From a phage, in the sequence record QB031382.1: DNA of 64,000 nucleotides; one strand, given 5' to 3'. Below the pieces are notes generated by a model. The model was not told where the DNA came from and ran no database searches. It worked only from the letters and a program-made list of their open reading frames with translations. Position 1 is the first letter of the stretch, and each line of letters starts with the position of its first letter. Shown piece after piece: positions 2,484 through 59,762 of this stretch. The position numbers and the translations under genes are program-made.

Positions 2484-3709
2484 TGAGCGTTATTCAACAA
2501 TTTGCCAACCCGATGAATCCGCGTGAAACTGTTTTACTGGCTCACGGCATGATTAAACGTGTCAGCATCAAACCTATCAAAGGTGCTGATCCTACAACAG
2601 GTATTAAAACCACTGTGTGGCAAGGTAAGAAAATCGAGTCCAGTCACACCATCTCTTTACTGATTTCTGAACTGGATTCTTCTGATAACCTACTTCAAGG
2701 TGGTGAAGAAGTTTGGATCAGTATGGGTGATAAATTGCTCAAACCTGGTCATCAAGATTCCGTCTCTGTTAAAATTGATGACAAGTGGGAAACAGTAACG
2801 CCAGGATGGATCGTAAATATCCCTTTAAAGGCAAATGAGCATAACGGTAAGACCTACTACAAAGGCTCATTGGCTAAAATGGTTAAGCTGGGGGCAGGAG
2901 AGGCTCCAGCAGCTCCACAGCAACAAAAACAGCAACAAGGCACACAATCACAAGGCCAGAAGCAGAAACCTCAGCAGAATGCCAATCAGGACGTTTTACG
3001 CATCTATGGTGATGTGACTCAGATTGTTGGTAACGTGGTTACTGTCAATGACCACAAGATTGGCGAAGGTGCTATGGTTGTCTCCGATGAGCAGCTTAAA
3101 GACCTGGTGGTTGGCGGTCGTGTTGCAGCTATTGTTGACAAAGACACCGGGAATATTATCAGCGGCTTCAAGGCCTACCCGCCTAAAGCAGAGAACGGTA
3201 CACAAGGTTCTGGTGGTAAGCGTAAATCCTCTTACGACCCCATTGGTGTAGAGACAGGGCACAGTATCAATGCGTTGCAGATCATTCTGGATCGCGGGTT
3301 TAAGATTGACAGCCCTTTAGATGTGGCTAAAACATTGCACGTGGTCACCATCGAGCTTAAGAAAGAGTACGCTCAAGCCACCAACCGGACTGAAGATGAA
3401 GTAGGTGCCAGTGTTGGTAACGCGGTATTGAATGCTTGTCGCCGTATTGACAAGAAAACGAAAGTTGATGATTTTGCAGCAGCAATTACTGCAGAGGCAA
3501 AAGATGTCTTGACTAATCTTGCTGAACCGTTGTACGATTGGATCAAGAATGGTGCGGGGACTACTGAGCATCAAGAACCTCAAGCTGCCAAACAGGAAGC
3601 CACTCCACAGCAAAACACTGTAGATGCCCCTCCTGTAGATGATGACGGAGATGACCCGATGGATCAGAATCCGGCACAATACGCCTTTGATGATGACATT
3701 CCTTTTTAA
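2483..3709 (+). CDS. SSB-like protein with Q-rich linker and C-terminal acidic DDDIPF tail
   Basis: Track ORF 2336..3709 trimmed to ATG 2483 after AAGGAG; protein ends DDDGDDPMDQNPAQYAFDDDIPF, matching the bacterial SSB C-terminal tip. Confidence 0.6.
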   Translation: MSVIQQFANPMNPRETVLLAHGMIKRVSIKPIKGADPTTGIKTTVWQGKKIESSHTISLLISELDSSDNLLQGGEEVWISMGDKLLKPGHQDSVSVKIDDKWETVTPGWIVNIPLKANEHNGKTYYKGSLAKMVKLGAGEAPAAPQQQKQQQGTQSQGQKQKPQQNANQDVLRIYGDVTQIVGNVVTVNDHKIGEGAMVVSDEQLKDLVVGGRVAAIVDKDTGNIISGFKAYPPKAENGTQGSGGKRKSSYDPIGVETGHSINALQIILDRGFKIDSPLDVAKTLHVVTIELKKEYAQATNRTEDEVGASVGNAVLNACRRIDKKTKVDDFAAAITAEAKDVLTNLAEPLYDWIKNGAGTTEHQEPQAAKQEATPQQNTVDAPPVDDDGDDPMDQNPAQYAFDDDIPF

Positions 3710-5932: not shown

Positions 5933-6124
5933 ATGGTAATTTTTAACCGGGATGGTATCATAGTTAGACAGCACCCGTTCCTTGAATACTATCAAATTGA
6001 GCAATGGTGCTACGGGGATTGCAGTCACTCCTATGGGCAAAGTTGGGGATATCGCACAGTTTTTGAATCAACAGACCTTGACAAAGTAAGACAGAAAGTT
6101 TTAGAACTTATTAACAACAAGTGA
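5933..6124 (+). CDS. hypothetical protein
   Basis: Track ORF downstream of promoter. Confidence 0.5.
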   Translation: MVIFNRDGIIVRQHPFLEYYQIEQWCYGDCSHSYGQSWGYRTVFESTDLDKVRQKVLELINNK

Positions 6125-6131
6125 GTATGAT

Positions 6132-6464
6132 ATGGTAACATTAGAAAGACGTAAAGCTATTGCCGCTACACTGGCAGACATCTTTTGGGATTGTAATTTA
6201 AAAGATACCCGATATTGCGGCGCATCTGTAGATGTATTATTCCCACGGCCCACCATTGTTGCAATGGGCAGTCTACTGGGCGTAGTTGCAGGTGCATGGG
6301 ATAAGGAAGGCGGTTTTTATATCTGGCAACCTGACTACGGTACCTGGAAAGAAGTAAGGGGTGCTGATGACTTTGGGCCTGCAGTTGCTAAGATGGATGG
6401 CTGGGAAATTTATGTTGGAAACGACATGAAGCTGAAAGGCGAGATTGTTTACTGGTTACCTTAA
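6132..6464 (+). CDS. hypothetical protein
   Basis: Track ORF. Confidence 0.45.
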   Translation: MVTLERRKAIAATLADIFWDCNLKDTRYCGASVDVLFPRPTIVAMGSLLGVVAGAWDKEGGFYIWQPDYGTWKEVRGADDFGPAVAKMDGWEIYVGNDMKLKGEIVYWLP

Positions 6465-15471: not shown

Positions 15472-15630
15472 ATGATCACGAACAAAACAGGAAAAACGGA
15501 ATTTTTACGCGGCTTGCAAATAGGTAAGCCTGAGATCTGGTATTGCACTAAAACACCACGTGACGAAATGAAAGATTTTACCGCCACGCTGAAGCGGGTA
15601 AAGATATCTATCACGCAGAAAAAGCCTTGA
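15472..15630 (+). CDS. small protein, 52 aa, absent from track
   Basis: ATG 15472 after AAGGTGA; hand-translated open frame to TGA 15628-15630. Confidence 0.4.
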   Translation: MITNKTGKTEFLRGLQIGKPEIWYCTKTPRDEMKDFTATLKRVKISITQKKP

Positions 15631-15776
15631 TAGTGGTGGAAGGTGAGATCCCTCAAGCCGTTGTTATAGTTGAGCGTACAGCATAGTTTAATCTATACCG
15701 TACGCCCCATTAACTAACAAAGCATAAGCAGGCGGCGGTGACCGCCTTGAACGCAACAGAAAGAGAATAGAAAAGC

Positions 15777-15911
15777 ATGAGAAAGGTAATTATCACCATA
15801 GGGATCGTGGCGGCAATGTTGGCGATCTTTCCCTTTATGGTTAGGTATGTGCTGATCAGTATTGTCCTGATAGTCAGTGGTCTATTGGAAACGGTTGGCA
15901 ACTGGTTTTAA
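15777..15911 (+). CDS. small hydrophobic protein, 44 aa, absent from track
   Basis: ATG 15777 after AAAGAGAA; followed by terminator hairpin. Confidence 0.4.
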   Translation: MRKVIITIGIVAAMLAIFPFMVRYVLISIVLIVSGLLETVGNWF

Positions 15912-15919
15912 GATAATAA

Positions 15920-15948
15920 ACAGGGCTTGCAATGGTCCTGTTTTTTGT
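15920..15948 (+). terminator. rho-independent terminator
   Basis: ACAGG-loop-CCTGT hairpin followed by TTTTTTGTT. Confidence 0.5.
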
Positions 15949-15982
15949 TATACTTATCTCACGGGTGGCACCTGGCGACGGG

Positions 15983-16011
15983 GGGAGACAATCACCGGGG
16001 GTGCCCGTTAT
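15983..16011. repeat. 29-bp inverted-repeat arm B, partner at 7875..7903
   Basis: GGGAGACAATCACCGGGGGTGCCCGTTAT, exact reverse complement of arm A. Confidence 0.85.
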
Positions 16012-16030
16012 ATAAAAACTATAAAAACAG

Positions 16031-16059
16031 TTGACATCTGCCAGGTGGTTAGGTAACAT
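16031..16059 (+). promoter_or_regulatory. sigma70-like promoter
   Basis: TTGACA 16031-16036, 17-bp spacer, TAACAT 16054-16059. Confidence 0.5.
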
Positions 16060-16113
16060 TTATCTTGAAGGGGCAAAAGTGCCCACACAACAACCAGAAG
16101 AGAGGAAAACATT

Positions 16114-16386
16114 ATGTCAAGCTGGATTAATCAAAAAGTTGAATCACGTTTTAATGCTATCTGGGATCTCATCGAAAAAGAGGACGGAACATCAAGCCCT
16201 TACCTCAATAATCTTGAATTCCATTTTGTGGAAGCGATGAACGCAGAACATGATCACAAAGGTGGCGCGGATGAGTTCGCTCAAGGGTATGGCTTCAACA
16301 ATGCCAACGAAATGATTGAAGCGGTTGTACTTCAGGCTGAGGAAGATTATCAATTAAAAACACTTGAATTTTGCCGCCGTAAGTAA
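16114..16386 (+). CDS. hypothetical protein
   Basis: Track ORF; RBS AGAGGAAAA upstream. Confidence 0.55.
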   Translation: MSSWINQKVESRFNAIWDLIEKEDGTSSPYLNNLEFHFVEAMNAEHDHKGGADEFAQGYGFNNANEMIEAVVLQAEEDYQLKTLEFCRRK

Positions 16387-16447
16387 TAAGATAATGACAC
16401 GGGCCAAAAGGCCCACCAAACCAGAACCCCATAAAGAGGAAAACATC

Positions 16448-16711
16448 ATGAAACGCCTTGATCAGCTCAAACTAGTTCAGTACATGGCCTACAAAGTTAT
16501 TGAAGTCCAAAAAGGTAGTAAAAAGGAGGTTTGCGAGAAAGCGTATAAGATCTTTACTCGTAAAAAAGATGATTGGATGTTACGCCAGACCAAAAAGGCT
16601 GATATCCTGGGGTACCTGGAAGAAGAGATCCGGCTTGAAGAGCAAGAAGAGATCCGCCGCAGTGAGGCAGATTATCAGGCAGCTTGGGAAAGCTGGATGA
16701 GAAACAAATAA
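16448..16711 (+). CDS. hypothetical protein
   Basis: Track ORF 16364..16711 trimmed to ATG 16448 after AAGAGGAAAA. Confidence 0.5.
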   Translation: MKRLDQLKLVQYMAYKVIEVQKGSKKEVCEKAYKIFTRKKDDWMLRQTKKADILGYLEEEIRLEEQEEIRRSEADYQAAWESWMRNK

Positions 16712-16723
16712 TAAACATTATCA

Positions 16724-16752
16724 AGGGGCTTAGGCCCCTTTCTTTTTGTTTG
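16724..16752 (+). terminator. rho-independent terminator, end of + block
   Basis: AGGGGC-TTAG-GCCCCT hairpin followed by TTCTTTTTGTTTG. Confidence 0.8.
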
Positions 16753-17364
16753 CTCTTTTCCTACCATAAACGGCCCTACCTGGCAAGTGGAATAATTGAC
16801 GAGCCATTAATCCCGCACACTGTACAAATATACATATAAAATAACTATTGCATAATCTTTCATCTTGTGGTAGCAGGGTCATTTTTACACGTTTTTCCTT
16901 CCAAAAATGCACGTAATGCAGCTATTGCACAAAATTTAACCTGATGCACATTTTCAGCATACTGTCAACAATTAAAAACCCTTATAAATCATACACTTAC
17001 ACAAACCAAAAAGCGTGTCCTACGTGAAAAATCGGGTGTAACTATAGCCGACAGATCTCAGAATCCACGTACGATCACCATTCTATAGCCTGCTAAGTAT
17101 TTATTCCAACCACAGAATAACGGAATAGTCAATACCTGTACAAAATAATTATTCGTATAAACTGCATAACATAAATTTTCTCATGTGTAAACATTTTTCG
17201 TAAACAGTCCGAAATTGTCACGATAGGTTACTATAATCAGAGAAATCTTTAGTCGTCTAATGTTTACTGCACATAACTATACTGACTGGAATCATTAGAT
17301 GACTAAGAGAAAGATAAGAAATAGTTAACAATGTAATTGTTTTACCTGTAACAATAAGGCAACT

Positions 17365-17642
17365 ATGCAAACGAATGTCATGGCGCGACGGAGTCGCGAC
17401 ATAATATAAAAGCAGTAACCATCACCCCCGTGATAGTTTATCTGCAAACTATTGATCAGATCATAGTTGCCTTAGATTTAGTTAATCATGACATAATAAG
17501 CAAGGCAACTATAGATCTGATAATAGTTGCCCTGCTTTTATATTATGTCATATATTATTAACCTGTTAATTGTCAGCTTATTGGCTGTTAGCTTGTCAAT
17601 TGTTAACTTGTTAATTGTTATCATGCAAACGAATGTCATGGC
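17365..17642. repeat. composite repeat element: 20-bp direct repeats flanking an 18-bp inverted-repeat pair
   Basis: ATGCAAACGAATGTCATGGC at 17365-17384 and 17623-17642; GACATAATATAAAAGCAG 17398-17415 is the reverse complement of 17532-17549; interior has repeated GGCAACTAT/ATAGTTGCC and a TGATCAGATCA palindrome. Confidence 0.8.
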
Positions 17643-17653
17643 TTATCATCTTT

Positions 17654-17765
17654 GTGTAAACTGTCAGGGTGTAGACTATTCAAGGTGTAAATTATTCAGA
17701 TGCAAACTATCCAGGCGTAAACAGTCTATGCGGGAACAATCTGCACGTGAACAATGAAACATGAA
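17654..17765. repeat. degenerate tandem array, about 16-bp period, about 7 units
   Basis: GTGTAAACTGTCAGG / GTGTAGACTATTCAAG / GTGTAAATTATTCAGA / TGCAAACTATCCAGGC and further units. Confidence 0.55.
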
Positions 17766-19254
17766 ATAATAACAGTCGTTATTGTATCGAAAGTGTATAA
17801 GGTGTCAGATTATGGCATATTGTGTGACATTGTGTCAGACAAGTTTTTCTCCTCTTTGTCAAGTGCTGCATGTAAAATTTACAAACTGGTATGGTAGCAT
17901 TTTTGCGGCCCTGTTTACATTCAGGAGTGTATGTATAACCCTTGTTGTGTGGGCGTTTAGACGTCTGGACGGTCAGAAGTCTGCAGGTTAATATCTAATC
18001 TATTGGTCGCTAACTATATCCCCACAAATAATAAGAAATGCAATTGTTATATGCGTAAACAGTAACTCATGTTATCAATCCCTGTATGTATCGCCAGTGG
18101 TGCGCATAATGGGTATTATGTTAAATTGCCCGTAATGATAACGATTCTCACAATGATAGGTATTCTCATTCACCCGCCCAGGATAGGTTGCAAATGTTGT
18201 GCCACTGTGTGAACGGCCTCGCCTATTAATTTGCCTCACTGCCCCGATATTTGAGAATTATTATAAGAATGAGAAGTATTCCCATTTCGTCCGCCTGGCA
18301 GCACTCCTGTAGGACAAGCACAAAATCGTGGCATAACTGTACCTGTTCAGATATTTCTGGCTGACTCTTCAGGTCTGTGTGGGAAAAGCCAACCTCTCCG
18401 GCGGCGGGGAGTGGGTCAATTAAAAAATTTACGTGGTGTATGAAGCGCTCTTCAGGTAAGGCAGGTATTATGGGATGAATCACTCTTCAGGTGATGATAT
18501 TTGTAGGTGTGATATTTGCTGGAAAGCCAGATATGACGGGACTCCCGGCGGGGCAGGGGTAGTACAGACAGGGAAAATGTGGAGAATGTGGTGGGTAAAT
18601 TGATCAAGCAGGTAGAGTATGGAATATGTTACAGGTATGTTAAATATGGAGGTAAGATATTTGTAAGATTTGTGTGTAAAATCAAAGACTTAAGTAGTGT
18701 TGTGGTATTTTCTATAAATAATTCAAGTTTAATAGGGAATATTTGCCTCTATCCACTTTGTATGGTAACTATATTCTAATTGAATTGGTTTACAAGTGTA
18801 TATAAAGTATACAAATTAAAGATACAAGAAACCCCCCTCCCCCTTCGGCTACCATTCACCTTTTCCTCTGACTGGTACTTAAACACTTATTCAGACTCTT
18901 CAGGTTATCACTCATATATCATATGGCAGTGACTGGTGTCCTCCGGCCCCTCTTTCGTCACCCGTCCGCTTCGCCATGCTAATGCCATAGCTAACTGTTC
19001 GGTTGTTCACCCTGTTCACTCAGGTGTATCTCCATACCCCTTCAAACCGAAGAGAACAGAAAACCCGAATTACTCGGTAAAAGAAAAGAGAAGAACTTAA
19101 TTTTATCAGGATAGGCAAGAATGTCAAGGCATGACTGCTCACTAAACAAGCAAACAGTCATGTGTGGGAGGTAAGTGATTGTGGTGGTAGGAAATTTAGT
19201 TGAAAGATGTGTTATAGGTGCTTCCAGCACTTTAGCCTGGCAGCTAATTGTGTG

Positions 19255-19470
19255 TCAGTCCAGCGGTTCATCCTCTACTTCACTGAAATCAATGTTCAGG
19301 GTCTCTTCCCAACCATCGATCTCAGCACAAGAGTGGAGTTCTTTAGGGTTTACTCCCAAAGCCTCAGCAACAGAGTCTATATTTAACACCTCTGGCAGGT
19401 ATGATTCATCGAATTCAAGGTAAATCAGGCCACGAGTGTTGTCAGCTCCACCAAATATTTCTATCTTCAT
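19255..19470 (-). CDS. hypothetical acidic protein
   Basis: Track ORF, last gene of minus-strand array. Confidence 0.5.
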   Translation of the reverse strand: MKIEIFGGADNTRGLIYLEFDESYLPEVLNIDSVAEALGVNPKELHSCAEIDGWEETLNIDFSEVEDEPLD

Positions 19471-19590
19471 AAAATCTCCTCTGGAAATGAGAGTGTGAAC
19501 AGGGTTATACGTTCCAATGCGCAGGAATTTATATACGTTTGCCTCTTCAGGCCATGCTTTAGCATGATAAACTTATGTGGGCTCGGTGCT

Positions 19591-19893
19591 TCATAGTCTG
19601 CCACCTCTGAACTCTTCGTGCTCGGGCAGGATAGAGAACCAGATGTCTAAGATGTCTTCCCACGTCAGGTCATCAGCCTCAGGGTCTAAGTTTTCCTCTA
19701 CGGTCACTTCTTCAGATGTCTCTTCAGATGCATGTGTGTTGGTCATGTTCCACCCGTTAGTATTCCGGCAACAGCCGCTATGGACGTAATGATCATCAGG
19801 ATCACCACTAAAACTTCGGACAATGTTTTCATTGCGTATTCCATATTCTTCAAACGATGTGAGGATACTATCACAGGAGCGGTAATGTGTCAA
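19591..19893 (-). CDS. hypothetical acidic protein
   Basis: Track ORF in minus-strand array. Confidence 0.5.
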   Translation of the reverse strand: MTHYRSCDSILTSFEEYGIRNENIVRSFSGDPDDHYVHSGCCRNTNGWNMTNTHASEETSEEVTVEENLDPEADDLTWEDILDIWFSILPEHEEFRGGRL

Positions 19894-20049
19894 CAGAAAC
19901 GCCGCGAGGGTTGGTTAAAATCCGAGCGTATGGTGATTTGGGTCAAAACGGACGTGCGTTCTCGCTACGCTCGAAATAGAGAGTTGTTTACAGGCCGCCC
20001 TTAAACGCTCTGTAATAAGATTATCCATCTAAGGTATGCAATCGTGCAC

Positions 20050-20105: not shown

Positions 20106-20417
20106 CTATACCCATGAGGGCTTGTCCAGGTTGGAGTAACTGAAAGGGGTCAAAAGGTGACTGTCAAAATCTTTCAAACTGTCCAGATCTTTTTCCTCGT
20201 CCTGACACCATCTGTGTCTACATTTATTGTTGTAGTGCATGGAATGCATAGCGTTCTGCAACTTAATAGGCACAAGTGATTCAGGAGTAGATAGAATTGT
20301 TGGGTATGCCAGAACTATCTCAAACAATGGAAACACATCGAAACTAAAGTCTACCTCTGCAGAGGTTGATGGCATATAGGAGTATTTAGCCGCCCTTGTA
20401 GACATAATCCACCTCAC
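20106..20417 (-). CDS. hypothetical protein
   Basis: Track ORF. Confidence 0.5.
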   Translation of the reverse strand: MRWIMSTRAAKYSYMPSTSAEVDFSFDVFPLFEIVLAYPTILSTPESLVPIKLQNAMHSMHYNNKCRHRWCQDEEKDLDSLKDFDSHLLTPFSYSNLDKPSWV

Positions 20418-59122: not shown

Positions 59123-59197
59123 ACCAGTAAAAACTTAAATATCTGTACTATAAAGGTTCGTATGTTTTATGTTCACTTTGGAGCTAAGATTATTAAC

Positions 59198-59257
59198 TGT
59201 CCGCCACGCGGACACATCTGCCCGTAATACGGACACTAACTGTCCGCAATACGGACA
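59198..59257. promoter_or_regulatory. array of palindromic operator-like sites
   Basis: TGTCCGC-CAC-GCGGACA 59198-59214, TGTCCG-CAATA-CGGACA 59241-59257, partial site between, centres about 21 bp apart. Confidence 0.65.
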
Positions 59258-59762
59258 CATAAAGAATATAACTAAAATAACTAAATAATAAAAATAAAAG
59301 ATCTAGTACTTATGGTACTAAAGTACATATACTTAACTTATGTAGAATATACTAGATCCTAAGTACCATGTTTTAAATTTATTACTTATTATGGGTAGTG
59401 TCGGCCCCTCATTGGCACTCGCCTACGAGGGGGCGAGATGCCGGGCCTCCATAGTGCACACAATAACAGGAGTGCATACATGCAGGACTGTTAACATGTG
59501 TGGGAGCGAAGCGATAGCGCAGGCCAAAGGCCGAGCACTAATGTGGACCACCGACGAAAGCTTGCCAGCGCCGTAAGGAGTCGGTTGAGAGACTCCCGCG
59601 CGAGTTTGGTTAAAGTTTATGTGTGGAAACGGACAAGAAGGCTCCTAAATCTCACCACAGCTGTGTAAACTCTACCAAGTAAGGCAATCGCACCAGTTTG
59701 ATAGAAAAGCTCGTTACAAAGCGATACAGTGAGTTTTTCTATAACTTGAAGAGGAGGCAGCT

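Follow-up and report, generated by a model that had tools for sequence, protein, structure and literature searches.

The repeat cluster described here lies at 17365-17642 of a 64,000-nt stretch of phage DNA (sequence record QB031382.1; the whole stretch is called the window), and the closest described system is the concatemer junction of phage T7, which carries a 160-bp terminal repeat. Maturation of T7-type ends must duplicate the terminal repeat, and a hairpin-containing intermediate has been observed (PMC4281155), the T7 hairpin going back to Chung, Nardone and Hinkle (1990), as cited in PMC4925675. The window resembles this junction in several respects. Both have a short direct terminal repeat (DTR) with T7-type termini which has to be duplicated during processing (the hairpin intermediate itself is T7's), in both, short units with a non-helical period form an array that begins at the inner edge of the terminal repeat, and further cis elements follow just past it. 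In T7 the array comprises about 10 units of 13 nt (174-341), in the window 13 units of 15-16 nt (17563-17760) and TGTCA repeats, so that repeats abut the DTR over 17563-17837. However, there is no sequence similarity between the two, the best inverted-repeat arms of T7 are imperfect, 10-12 nt long and form no composite palindrome, and T7 has promoters of its own RNA polymerase (phiOL, phiOR), whereas these myoviruses are without a phage RNA polymerase. Moreover, arrays occupy both flanks in T7, while the right flank in the window has four copies of CTCTTCAGGT instead. A second relevant system is the region of phage T5 called the injection stop signal (bioRxiv 10.1101/866236). Like the window element it is large, untranslated and end-proximal, it combines nested repeats, palindromes and a tandem array in an order that is conserved across relatives while the neighboring genes vary, and its function is likewise inferred. 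It differs in its place, within or bordering a terminal repeat of 10 kb, in being tied to a two-step injection, which is not known for rV5-like phages, and in having eight proposed DnaA boxes, whereas none was found in the window element.

The inverted terminal repeat (ITR) of adeno-associated virus forms a T-shaped hairpin, and both extreme ends of the single-stranded genome carry it. Parvovirus ITRs resemble the window element in that an outer stem surrounds small internal palindromes to give a branched hairpin of ~125-150 nt, and in that short repeated protein-binding motifs are combined with structure for priming or resolution and for packaging. The window element, in contrast, is located 290-440 bp inside a double-stranded DTR genome and at one end only, and no Rep-like nickase is known for it. 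In this study, we conclude with high confidence that the cluster belongs to a conserved, one-sided, DTR-proximal and non-coding cis element under selection for palindromic pairing. Compared with other cis signals adjacent to the terminal repeats of DTR phages, this element is unusual, as it is a covarying, ITR-like composite palindrome that occurs subfamily-wide in the Vequintavirinae. We found no publication describing it, the rV5 genome paper (PMC3606486) being silent on repeats, and no transcriptome or functional study of the region was found in the literature.

Position and anatomy of the element

Judged from its sequence, the window phage is an rV5-like phage of Escherichia coli (genus Vequintavirus), and all of the 120 phage records that match the region (86-95% identity) are rV5-like as well. 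A DTR of 458-459 bp has been defined in three Vequintavirus phages, Gotham (PMC7471380), EdH4 and HdK5 (both PMC6563267). In the Gotham record (MT682716) a 459-bp repeat_region is annotated at 1-459 and at 136567-137025, identical at both record ends, and by homology it corresponds to 17838-18295 of the window (458 bp). The records of ECP2309 and YN3 begin at the exact base equivalent to 18295, the outer left terminus in the orientation of the Gotham record. Together, these matches indicate that the window is a circular- or concatemer-style assembly in which the DTR has collapsed to one copy, and they place the repeat cluster 196-473 bp inward of the left virion end. The short and exact DTR with T7-type termini is thus derived from the Gotham homology and from published termini (PMC7471380, PMC6563267, PMC9862379). 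Plus-strand genes upstream of the cluster stop at 16711 and are followed by a strong terminator (16723-16740). In Gotham, all genes of the left 37 kb point to the left end and those at ~98.5-135.6 kb point to the right end; therefore both ends are bordered by non-coding DNA, ~1.1 kb at the left (16741-17837 in the window) and ~1 kb at the right. A believable gene across the region is annotated in none of the matching phage records, and the isim record marks two unexplained repeat_regions in it. Small open reading frames across the module were rejected as coding, as relatives have 1-nt indels there.

The features of the region are listed below by window coordinates, with the strand given where one was assigned. 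DR1 and DR2 are the two copies of the direct repeat, IR-L and IR-R the arms of the inverted repeat; relatives are the 13 Vequintavirus genomes compared in detail, and KPP-1 is a phage of the sister genus Mydovirus.

17355-17367: lone half-site TAAGGCAACTATG, the perfect complement of 17462-17474, overlapping DR1 by two bases and invariant in the 13 relatives
17365-17384: DR1, the 20-bp direct-repeat copy farther from the DTR, ATGCAAACGAATG(T/G)CATGGC, kept as the single copy of phage FV3
17385-17397: GC-rich mini-hairpin GCGAC-GGA-GTCGC, aligning with the GC-rich CGCTCGCTACGCTCGCGC after the distal arm of the KPP-1 type
17386-17562, minus strand: entire palindromic module, an end-to-end match (21.1 bits) to the covariance model of the sister-genus elements
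17398-17415: IR-L, distal arm of the 18-bp inverted repeat, GACATAATATAAAAGCAG, invariant in 12 of 13 relatives
17417-17438: dyad 0, AACCATCAC-CCCC-GTGATAGTT, which, read on the minus strand, resembles a terminator hairpin with a T-run behind it
17443-17471: dyad 1, GCAAACTAT-N11-ATAGTTGCC, whose variable spacer holds one conserved GATC
17488-17498: partial third copy of the inverted-repeat arm, ATGACATAATA, from the repeat finder
17504-17531: dyad 2, GGCAACTAT-N10-ATAGTTGCC, with invariant half-sites and a variable spacer, marked as a terminator in the Murica and Alma records
17532-17549: IR-R, DTR-proximal arm of the 18-bp inverted repeat, from the inverted-repeat scan
17563-17622: array 1, four 15-nt units of the TTGTTAATTGTYARC type, from repeat periodicity and relatives
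17623-17642: DR2, the 20-bp direct-repeat copy nearer to the DTR, sharing the phase of the arrays
17654-17760: array 2, seven 15-16-nt units of the (R)TGTAAACWRTC type, whose core GCAAACTAT/GTAAACTGT is common with the dyad half-sites
17761-17837: array 3, short TGTCA-type repeats up to the conserved boundary between TGTGTCA and GACAAGTTTTT
17838-18295: DTR of 458 bp, single copy in the window, from Gotham homology, the ECP2309 and YN3 record starts and published termini (PMC7471380; PMC6563267)

Inward from the DTR, the order is therefore TGTCA repeats, array 2, DR2, array 1, palindromic module, GC mini-hairpin, DR1 and lone half-site. The core of the module (17398-17549) is a 152-nt composite palindrome, in which the 18-bp inverted repeat surrounds three dyads of the form AACYAT-N10-ATAGTT with center-to-center distances of ~30 and ~60 bp. 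Dyads 1 and 2 are alike, and for this reason the 152 nt can also fold in their entirety as a single long imperfect palindrome. Folding of this core gave -46 kcal/mol as single-stranded DNA (z = -9.0) and a z-score of -10.3 as RNA.

All of the repeats named in the first-pass annotation of this DNA are present and well above chance. Both copies of the 20-bp direct repeat ATGCAAACGAATGTCATGGC (17365-17384 and 17623-17642) are perfect, and the sequence has no further match in the 64 kb, even at three mismatches, nor any in 100 shuffles. The 18-bp inverted repeat is perfect as well (17398-17415 and 17532-17549) and is the only separated-arm inverted repeat in the window (arms of at least 15 nt, within 500 bp); the same scan gave one further entry, a 16-nt overlapping palindrome at 20350-20369. 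The GCGAC-GGA-GTCGC hairpin was found again at 17385-17397, and GGCAACTAT indeed occurs in alternating orientation (+, -, +, - at 17358, 17463, 17504 and 17523). These four copies are the only ones in the window, where 0.59 are expected, and none of 100 shuffles reached four. Two readings had to be given up. TGATCAGATCA (17453-17463), annotated as a palindrome, is not truly palindromic, and the two GATC sites are not distinctive: the first is present only in the window and YP-6 while most relatives have TAATCAGATCA, and GATC is over-represented across the genome (~1 per 190 bp), therefore its content here is unremarkable. A significance of GATC or Dam was rejected on these two grounds. Finally, the extent of 17365-17642 contains the elements listed for it, but it is only part of the feature, since the 15-nt array runs to ~17760 and the TGTCA-type repeats continue to 17837, the DTR boundary. 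The periodicity of the array is strong (lag-15 identity 0.55, autocorrelation z = 8.5), and in Gotham the degenerate GCAAACTAT/GTAAACTGT core pattern has 4 matches in the ~250 bp here vs 20 in the remaining 274 kb (both strands).

Conservation, homology and base pairing of the module

A search of other phage genomes for the repeats showed that the module is kept at a fixed locus and as a single copy per genome in 118 of 120 relatives' records. The palindrome, the 20-mer and the 18-bp inverted repeat are each unique in a complete 137-kb phage genome. Both flanks are 90-100% identical in relatives, and the interval between them measures 207-560 bp. Twelve of the 13 relatives keep the module, DR1 and each of the four GGCAACTAT sites unchanged, and the few variable columns of the module sit in dyad spacers and loops. 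The module is the least variable non-coding segment (nucleotide diversity pi 0.011-0.036), compared with 0.08-0.13 in the left non-coding flank and 0.04-0.11 across most of the DTR, and the adjoining arrays evolve fast (0.19-0.36, with many indels). The gap from IR-R to DR2 in relatives is 13, 28, 43/46, 73/76, 93 or 154 bp, because 15-nt units are gained and lost (0 to ~6 units in array 1); array 2 has roughly 5-13 copies. Two records lack larger parts of the region. FV3 has exactly one 20-mer, with the left context of DR1 and the right context of DR2, and everything between them is gone, including the palindrome, as is classically left behind when direct repeats around a palindrome slip or recombine. 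V18 is without DR2 and most of the array DNA, but a poly-T run makes its record suspect.

Small inserts of 33-53 bp that form GC-rich hairpins were observed at differing places of this non-coding region in relatives, namely in rV5 (locus L016, 1404-1423), YP-6 (L020, 1515-1534) and SYGMH1 (L021, 1577-1596), after IR-R (L002, L016, L019 and L021) and in Mydo (L029, ~1104-1156). The rV5 insert between dyads 1 and 2 alters their spacing from 60 to 93 bp. These inserts could be tiny insertion sequences or slippage products. Furthermore, 18 MG0656xx records labeled 'Campylobacter phage' (e.g., MG065644, MG065662 and MG065690) are 88-91% identical to the region over its full length; C. jejuni is named as host in 16 of them, and these host labels look doubtful.

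A comparable module exists in the sister genera. The Vequintavirinae DTR-proximal palindromic module was defined from KPP-1, Mydo, PVP-SE1, EspYZU15, AV124, KNP2 and DP as a perfect 18-21-bp inverted repeat which closes a multi-hairpin segment of 150-260 nt and lies no more than a few hundred bp from the inner DTR boundary, on one side only, where genes read toward the end. The window has the same arrangement, with an 18-bp repeat closing 152 nt on that side. Klebsiella phage KPP-1 has a T7-type DTR of 514 bp that was verified with PhageTerm (PMC9862379), and phage DP annotates the same 514-bp repeat_region. In both phages a perfect 21-bp inverted repeat closes a 206-nt module on the equivalent side and in the equivalent orientation. 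In KPP-1 this multi-hairpin segment (folding z = -10.7) is positioned 309 bp beyond the DTR boundary; in the window the proximal arm is 289 bp from 17838. The KPP-1-type non-coding region is ~80% conserved across Mydovirus and Seunavirus phages, whose hosts include Klebsiella, Proteus, Salmonella, Cronobacter, Escherichia and others. No comparable inverted repeat was found on the other DTR flank in either clade. The gene neighboring the element encodes an 87-aa charged protein, which bears a tentative FtsK label in one record; as an anchor across genera or as a candidate binder it was rejected, the Vequintavirus and KPP-1 proteins being unrelated.

All 11 unique sister modules have perfectly complementary arms of 18-21 bp, in 6 arm haplotypes. 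Base pairing was examined in a 10-sequence alignment of sister modules with 62 predicted pairs and 500 shuffles. Both sides had changed in 14 of the 62 pairs, 97.9% of cells were paired, and no shuffle matched the observed pairing, double-change count or covariation score. When pairing partners were slid along the alignment, the paired fraction fell to 22-46%. Five helices of the sister-clade element covary significantly, and this pattern indicates that intrastrand base pairing is under selection in the sister-clade module. As several helices of unrelated sequence covary, the data argue for intrastrand pairing rather than for the operator of one protein. Going inward from the DTR (5' to 3'), one and the same strand has the better fold in 10 of 10 sister-clade and in 13 of 13 Vequintavirus sequences, and wobble (G·U-type) pairs occur on the better-folding strand only (38 vs 0). 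Within Vequintavirus the stems are invariant.

The homology of the two modules came to light with a covariance model rather than by direct alignment: BLAST of the window against the KPP-1 regions gave only a 37-nt match inside the DTR and no similarity in the module. A covariance model built solely from sister-clade elements gave no match at default filters, but in the unfiltered searches that were needed it matched 17386-17562 of the window on the minus strand, end to end (model positions 1-227, 21.1 bits, E ~9e-4 over 64 kb). This was the sole significant match, the next and unrelated one having 8.2 bits, and 9 of 12 other Vequintavirus loci matched on the same strand with 19-30 bits. Since ~9 of the 21 bits stem from the arms alone and the calibration of the E-value is rough, we regard the covariance model as moderate evidence of homology. 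The arms of window and KPP-1 are identical at 12 of 18 positions (GACACAATAACACGGGAG in KPP-1 vs GACATAATATAAAAGCAG) and all six differences are compensated. An alignment was likewise obtained for the GC-rich stretch that follows the distal arm, and the orientation of the module relative to the DTR is the same.

KPP-1 (locus L028) has an 18-bp direct repeat of its own, CCACGATWACGCGAACGA, at 3479-3496 and 3565-3582. One copy is located just past the distal GC-rich stretch, which is the relative place of DR1, and the flanking direct repeat may thus also be ancestral. Two metagenomic KPP-1-type contigs from IMG/VR break inside the module, within ~55 nt of its center (L035 at its end, L037 at its start). 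These breaks were rejected as real fold-back ends, as there is no fold-back sequence, and they are probably an effect of the palindrome on assembly.

A proposed role in processing of the concatemer junction and competing functions

The position, conservation and folding of the element leave room for several functions, and we tentatively favor a T7-like signal for concatemer-junction processing and packaging, which is quite possible but falls short of probable. Here, replication would give concatemers in which adjacent genomes have one DTR in common, and the repeated units would serve, beside the cut site, as a recognition platform for the small terminase subunit or an accessory factor. Processing would also have to duplicate the DTR; the displaced strand (5' to 3' from the DTR inward) would allow the palindrome to fold into a stable multi-hairpin or cruciform, and the folded palindrome may limit, prime or mark the reaction. 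The array that follows the terminal repeat of T7 and the further cis elements past it are counted as support for such a role, and so are the repeat duplication and the hairpin intermediate of T7-type maturation. In addition, the strand with the better fold would be the one that is displaced when synthesis comes in from the DTR. The link to packaging and processing, as well as the nature of the binding protein, we infer by analogy with T7. Several observations weigh against this proposal. The loss of the palindrome in FV3 suggests that the module is dispensable or redundant, unless that record contains a cloning or assembly deletion. The arrays are missing from the KPP-1 type, the distance from palindrome to DTR boundary ranges from 98 to 339 bp among relatives, so that a fixed geometry is not required, and T7 is without a comparably long perfect inverted repeat. 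In addition, covariation cannot tell single-stranded DNA from RNA.

A more specific version, in which a subfamily-wide folded element (an ITR-like hairpin of single-stranded DNA, formed by the strand displaced from the terminal repeat, or a pRNA-like RNA encoded at the genome end) would be the cis device that duplicates and resolves the DTRs, is conceivable but leans toward the unlikely. If true, it would offer a tangible way into the question of how concatemers give back T7-type terminal repeats. An end-processing or packaging signal would, more generally, enable packageable plasmids or cosmids, a safer engineering of these phages, a correct orientation of genomes in databases and a direct test of hairpin models for terminal-repeat duplication. 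The rV5-like phages (Vequintavirinae) are among the most often isolated and most used therapeutic coliphages.

The strongest competitor is a replication origin. Iteron origins, such as lambda ori and the oriV of plasmids P1, R6K and pSC101, have repeats of ~20-22 bp which are helically phased, and as in the window element, dyads and AT-rich sequence accompany the direct repeats in non-coding DNA. In T7 the promoter phiOL is associated with a secondary origin. The first-pass annotation had suggested an iteron-type origin or a recombination site. Of this, a conserved and non-coding cluster of cis-acting repeats holds, and iteron-like direct repeats are present in it (lag-15 z = 8.5). As an origin, the 15-nt units and dyads would bind a phage initiator, the AT-rich palindrome would melt or extrude, and a T7-like primase-helicase and polymerase would start there, similar to the secondary origins near the genome ends of T7. 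The core shared by direct units and inverted dyads would suit this, as would the GC minimum of the window in the 17-18 kb bin (0.36), the genes for the T7-like primase-helicase and polymerase in the same left arm, and the place of phiOL just past the left-end array of T7. However, an origin is unlikely, as there is no DnaA box (TTWTNCACA) or IHF site (WATCAANNNNTTR) within 16741-18295, the period of 15-16 bp lacks helical phasing, the copy number of the array is hypervariable, the KPP-1 type has no arrays and FV3 no palindrome. Nor is an initiator gene recognizable adjacent to the element, the 87-aa neighbor having had no domain search, and the rV5 authors ascribed the skew switches at this place to transcription direction (PMC3606486).

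A structured non-coding RNA of ~150-260 nt, transcribed inward from the left end on the minus strand and closed by the 18-21-bp stem, would represent a new family of phage non-coding RNA. The covariation in five helices, the one-sided wobbles, the strand preference common to both clades and energies of folding that are very low (z around -9 to -11) would all be expected of it, and sigma-70-like sites on the minus strand (17838-17809, 17808-17781 and 17569-17542) as well as the terminator-like hairpin at 17438-17417 could delimit a transcript. These candidate promoters are unconserved, however, as the Murica and rV5 types have other sequence in place of array 1; a small RNA from the 17569-17542 promoter was weakened as a candidate in particular, as its -35 region is replaced in many relatives. 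No plus-strand promoter-like site was found just upstream of the KPP-1 module, and the terminator-like feature is not kept in the KPP-1 type. Rfam 15 gave no match at E <=1 for window positions 15500-20000 and only chance-level matches for the KPP-1 region, none of them on the module. The closing stems, 100% Watson-Crick in all sequences, are more typical of DNA palindromy. We consider an RNA quite unlikely, a degree below the origin.

Improbable too, and more so than the RNA, is a transcriptional role, either as a bidirectional terminator or insulator that shields the genome end or as an operator cluster with a dimeric repressor on the GGCAACTAT dyads. Each arm of the 18-bp inverted repeat gives a T-run after a hairpin on either strand, the Murica and Alma annotations place a terminator at dyad 2, and invariant half-sites with variable spacers would suit a dimeric binding protein. 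On the other hand, the upstream operon is already closed by the terminator at 16723-16740, ~650 bp off, there is no downstream gene to regulate, the T-runs are unconserved in the homologous KPP-1-type module, and covariation of helices that differ in sequence favors base pairing over the operator of one protein.

A small non-autonomous mobile element, as the first-pass annotation had considered, or a cassette for site-specific recombination that the 20-bp repeats delimit and whose empty site would be FV3, is very improbable: although FV3 has exactly one 20-mer with nothing between and the segment bears terminal-ish inverted repeats, there is one copy per genome, invariably at this locus in 118 of 120 relatives, none elsewhere in a complete phage genome, in real plasmids or in the 5,426 E. 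coli genomes searched, the 20-mers do not abut the inverted repeats as a target-site duplication would (gaps of 13 bp from DR1 to IR-L and 13-154 bp from IR-R to DR2), DR2 is itself an array unit, other genera have a homologous module at the equivalent position, and FV3 is accounted for by palindrome-stimulated slippage between flanking direct repeats. The mobile element was rejected on the single fixed-locus copy and its absence from E. coli and plasmids. A dedicated recombination site is likewise not indicated, but FV3 shows that the 20-mers can recombine or slip and thereby delete the palindrome. The sole plasmid match was to PLSDB entry CP057073.1 (137,565 bp; E. coli from pooled cattle faeces), 85% identical at 6053-6346. 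This entry is as long as a Vequintavirus genome and probably represents a phage, perhaps one in the carrier state, misfiled as a plasmid. A scan of IMG/VR with the palindrome pattern returned nine loci, two of them from Vequintavirus and seven unrelated, which by our own estimate is about chance level.

Other features of the genome ends

Inside the DTR, 50 bp (18091-18140) are nearly invariant in relatives (pi 0.009). A direct repeat, AATGATAACGATTCTCA / AATGATAGGTATTCTCA at 18134-18168, overlaps this stretch, and the DTR of KPP-1 also carries GAGAAT-type motifs. Judged from sequence, the near-invariant stretch and the overlapping repeat and motifs are candidates for signals that the terminase recognizes or cuts. 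Single copies of CGTAAACAGTC/A, the array unit, occur in isolation at 17199-17209, ~150 bp beyond the module, and at 18054-18064 inside the DTR.

The four plus-strand copies of CTCTTCAGGT (18365-18374, 18448-18457, 18483-18492 and 18896-18905; expected 0.11) are confined to the non-coding flank across the DTR, on the right-end side, and the motif differs from the repeats of the left side. On the same side, ~380 bp outside the DTR, an IHF consensus (AATCAAAGACTTA) and the sole DnaA-box consensus in the vicinity of the ends (minus strand, TTTTACACA) overlap at 18673-18692. Farther away, at 59194-59258, an intergenic 22-nt tandem repeat in three copies (TAACTGTCCGCAATACGGACAC) with a small hairpin per unit lies ~1.5 kb past a switch of the coding strand (~57.7 kb).

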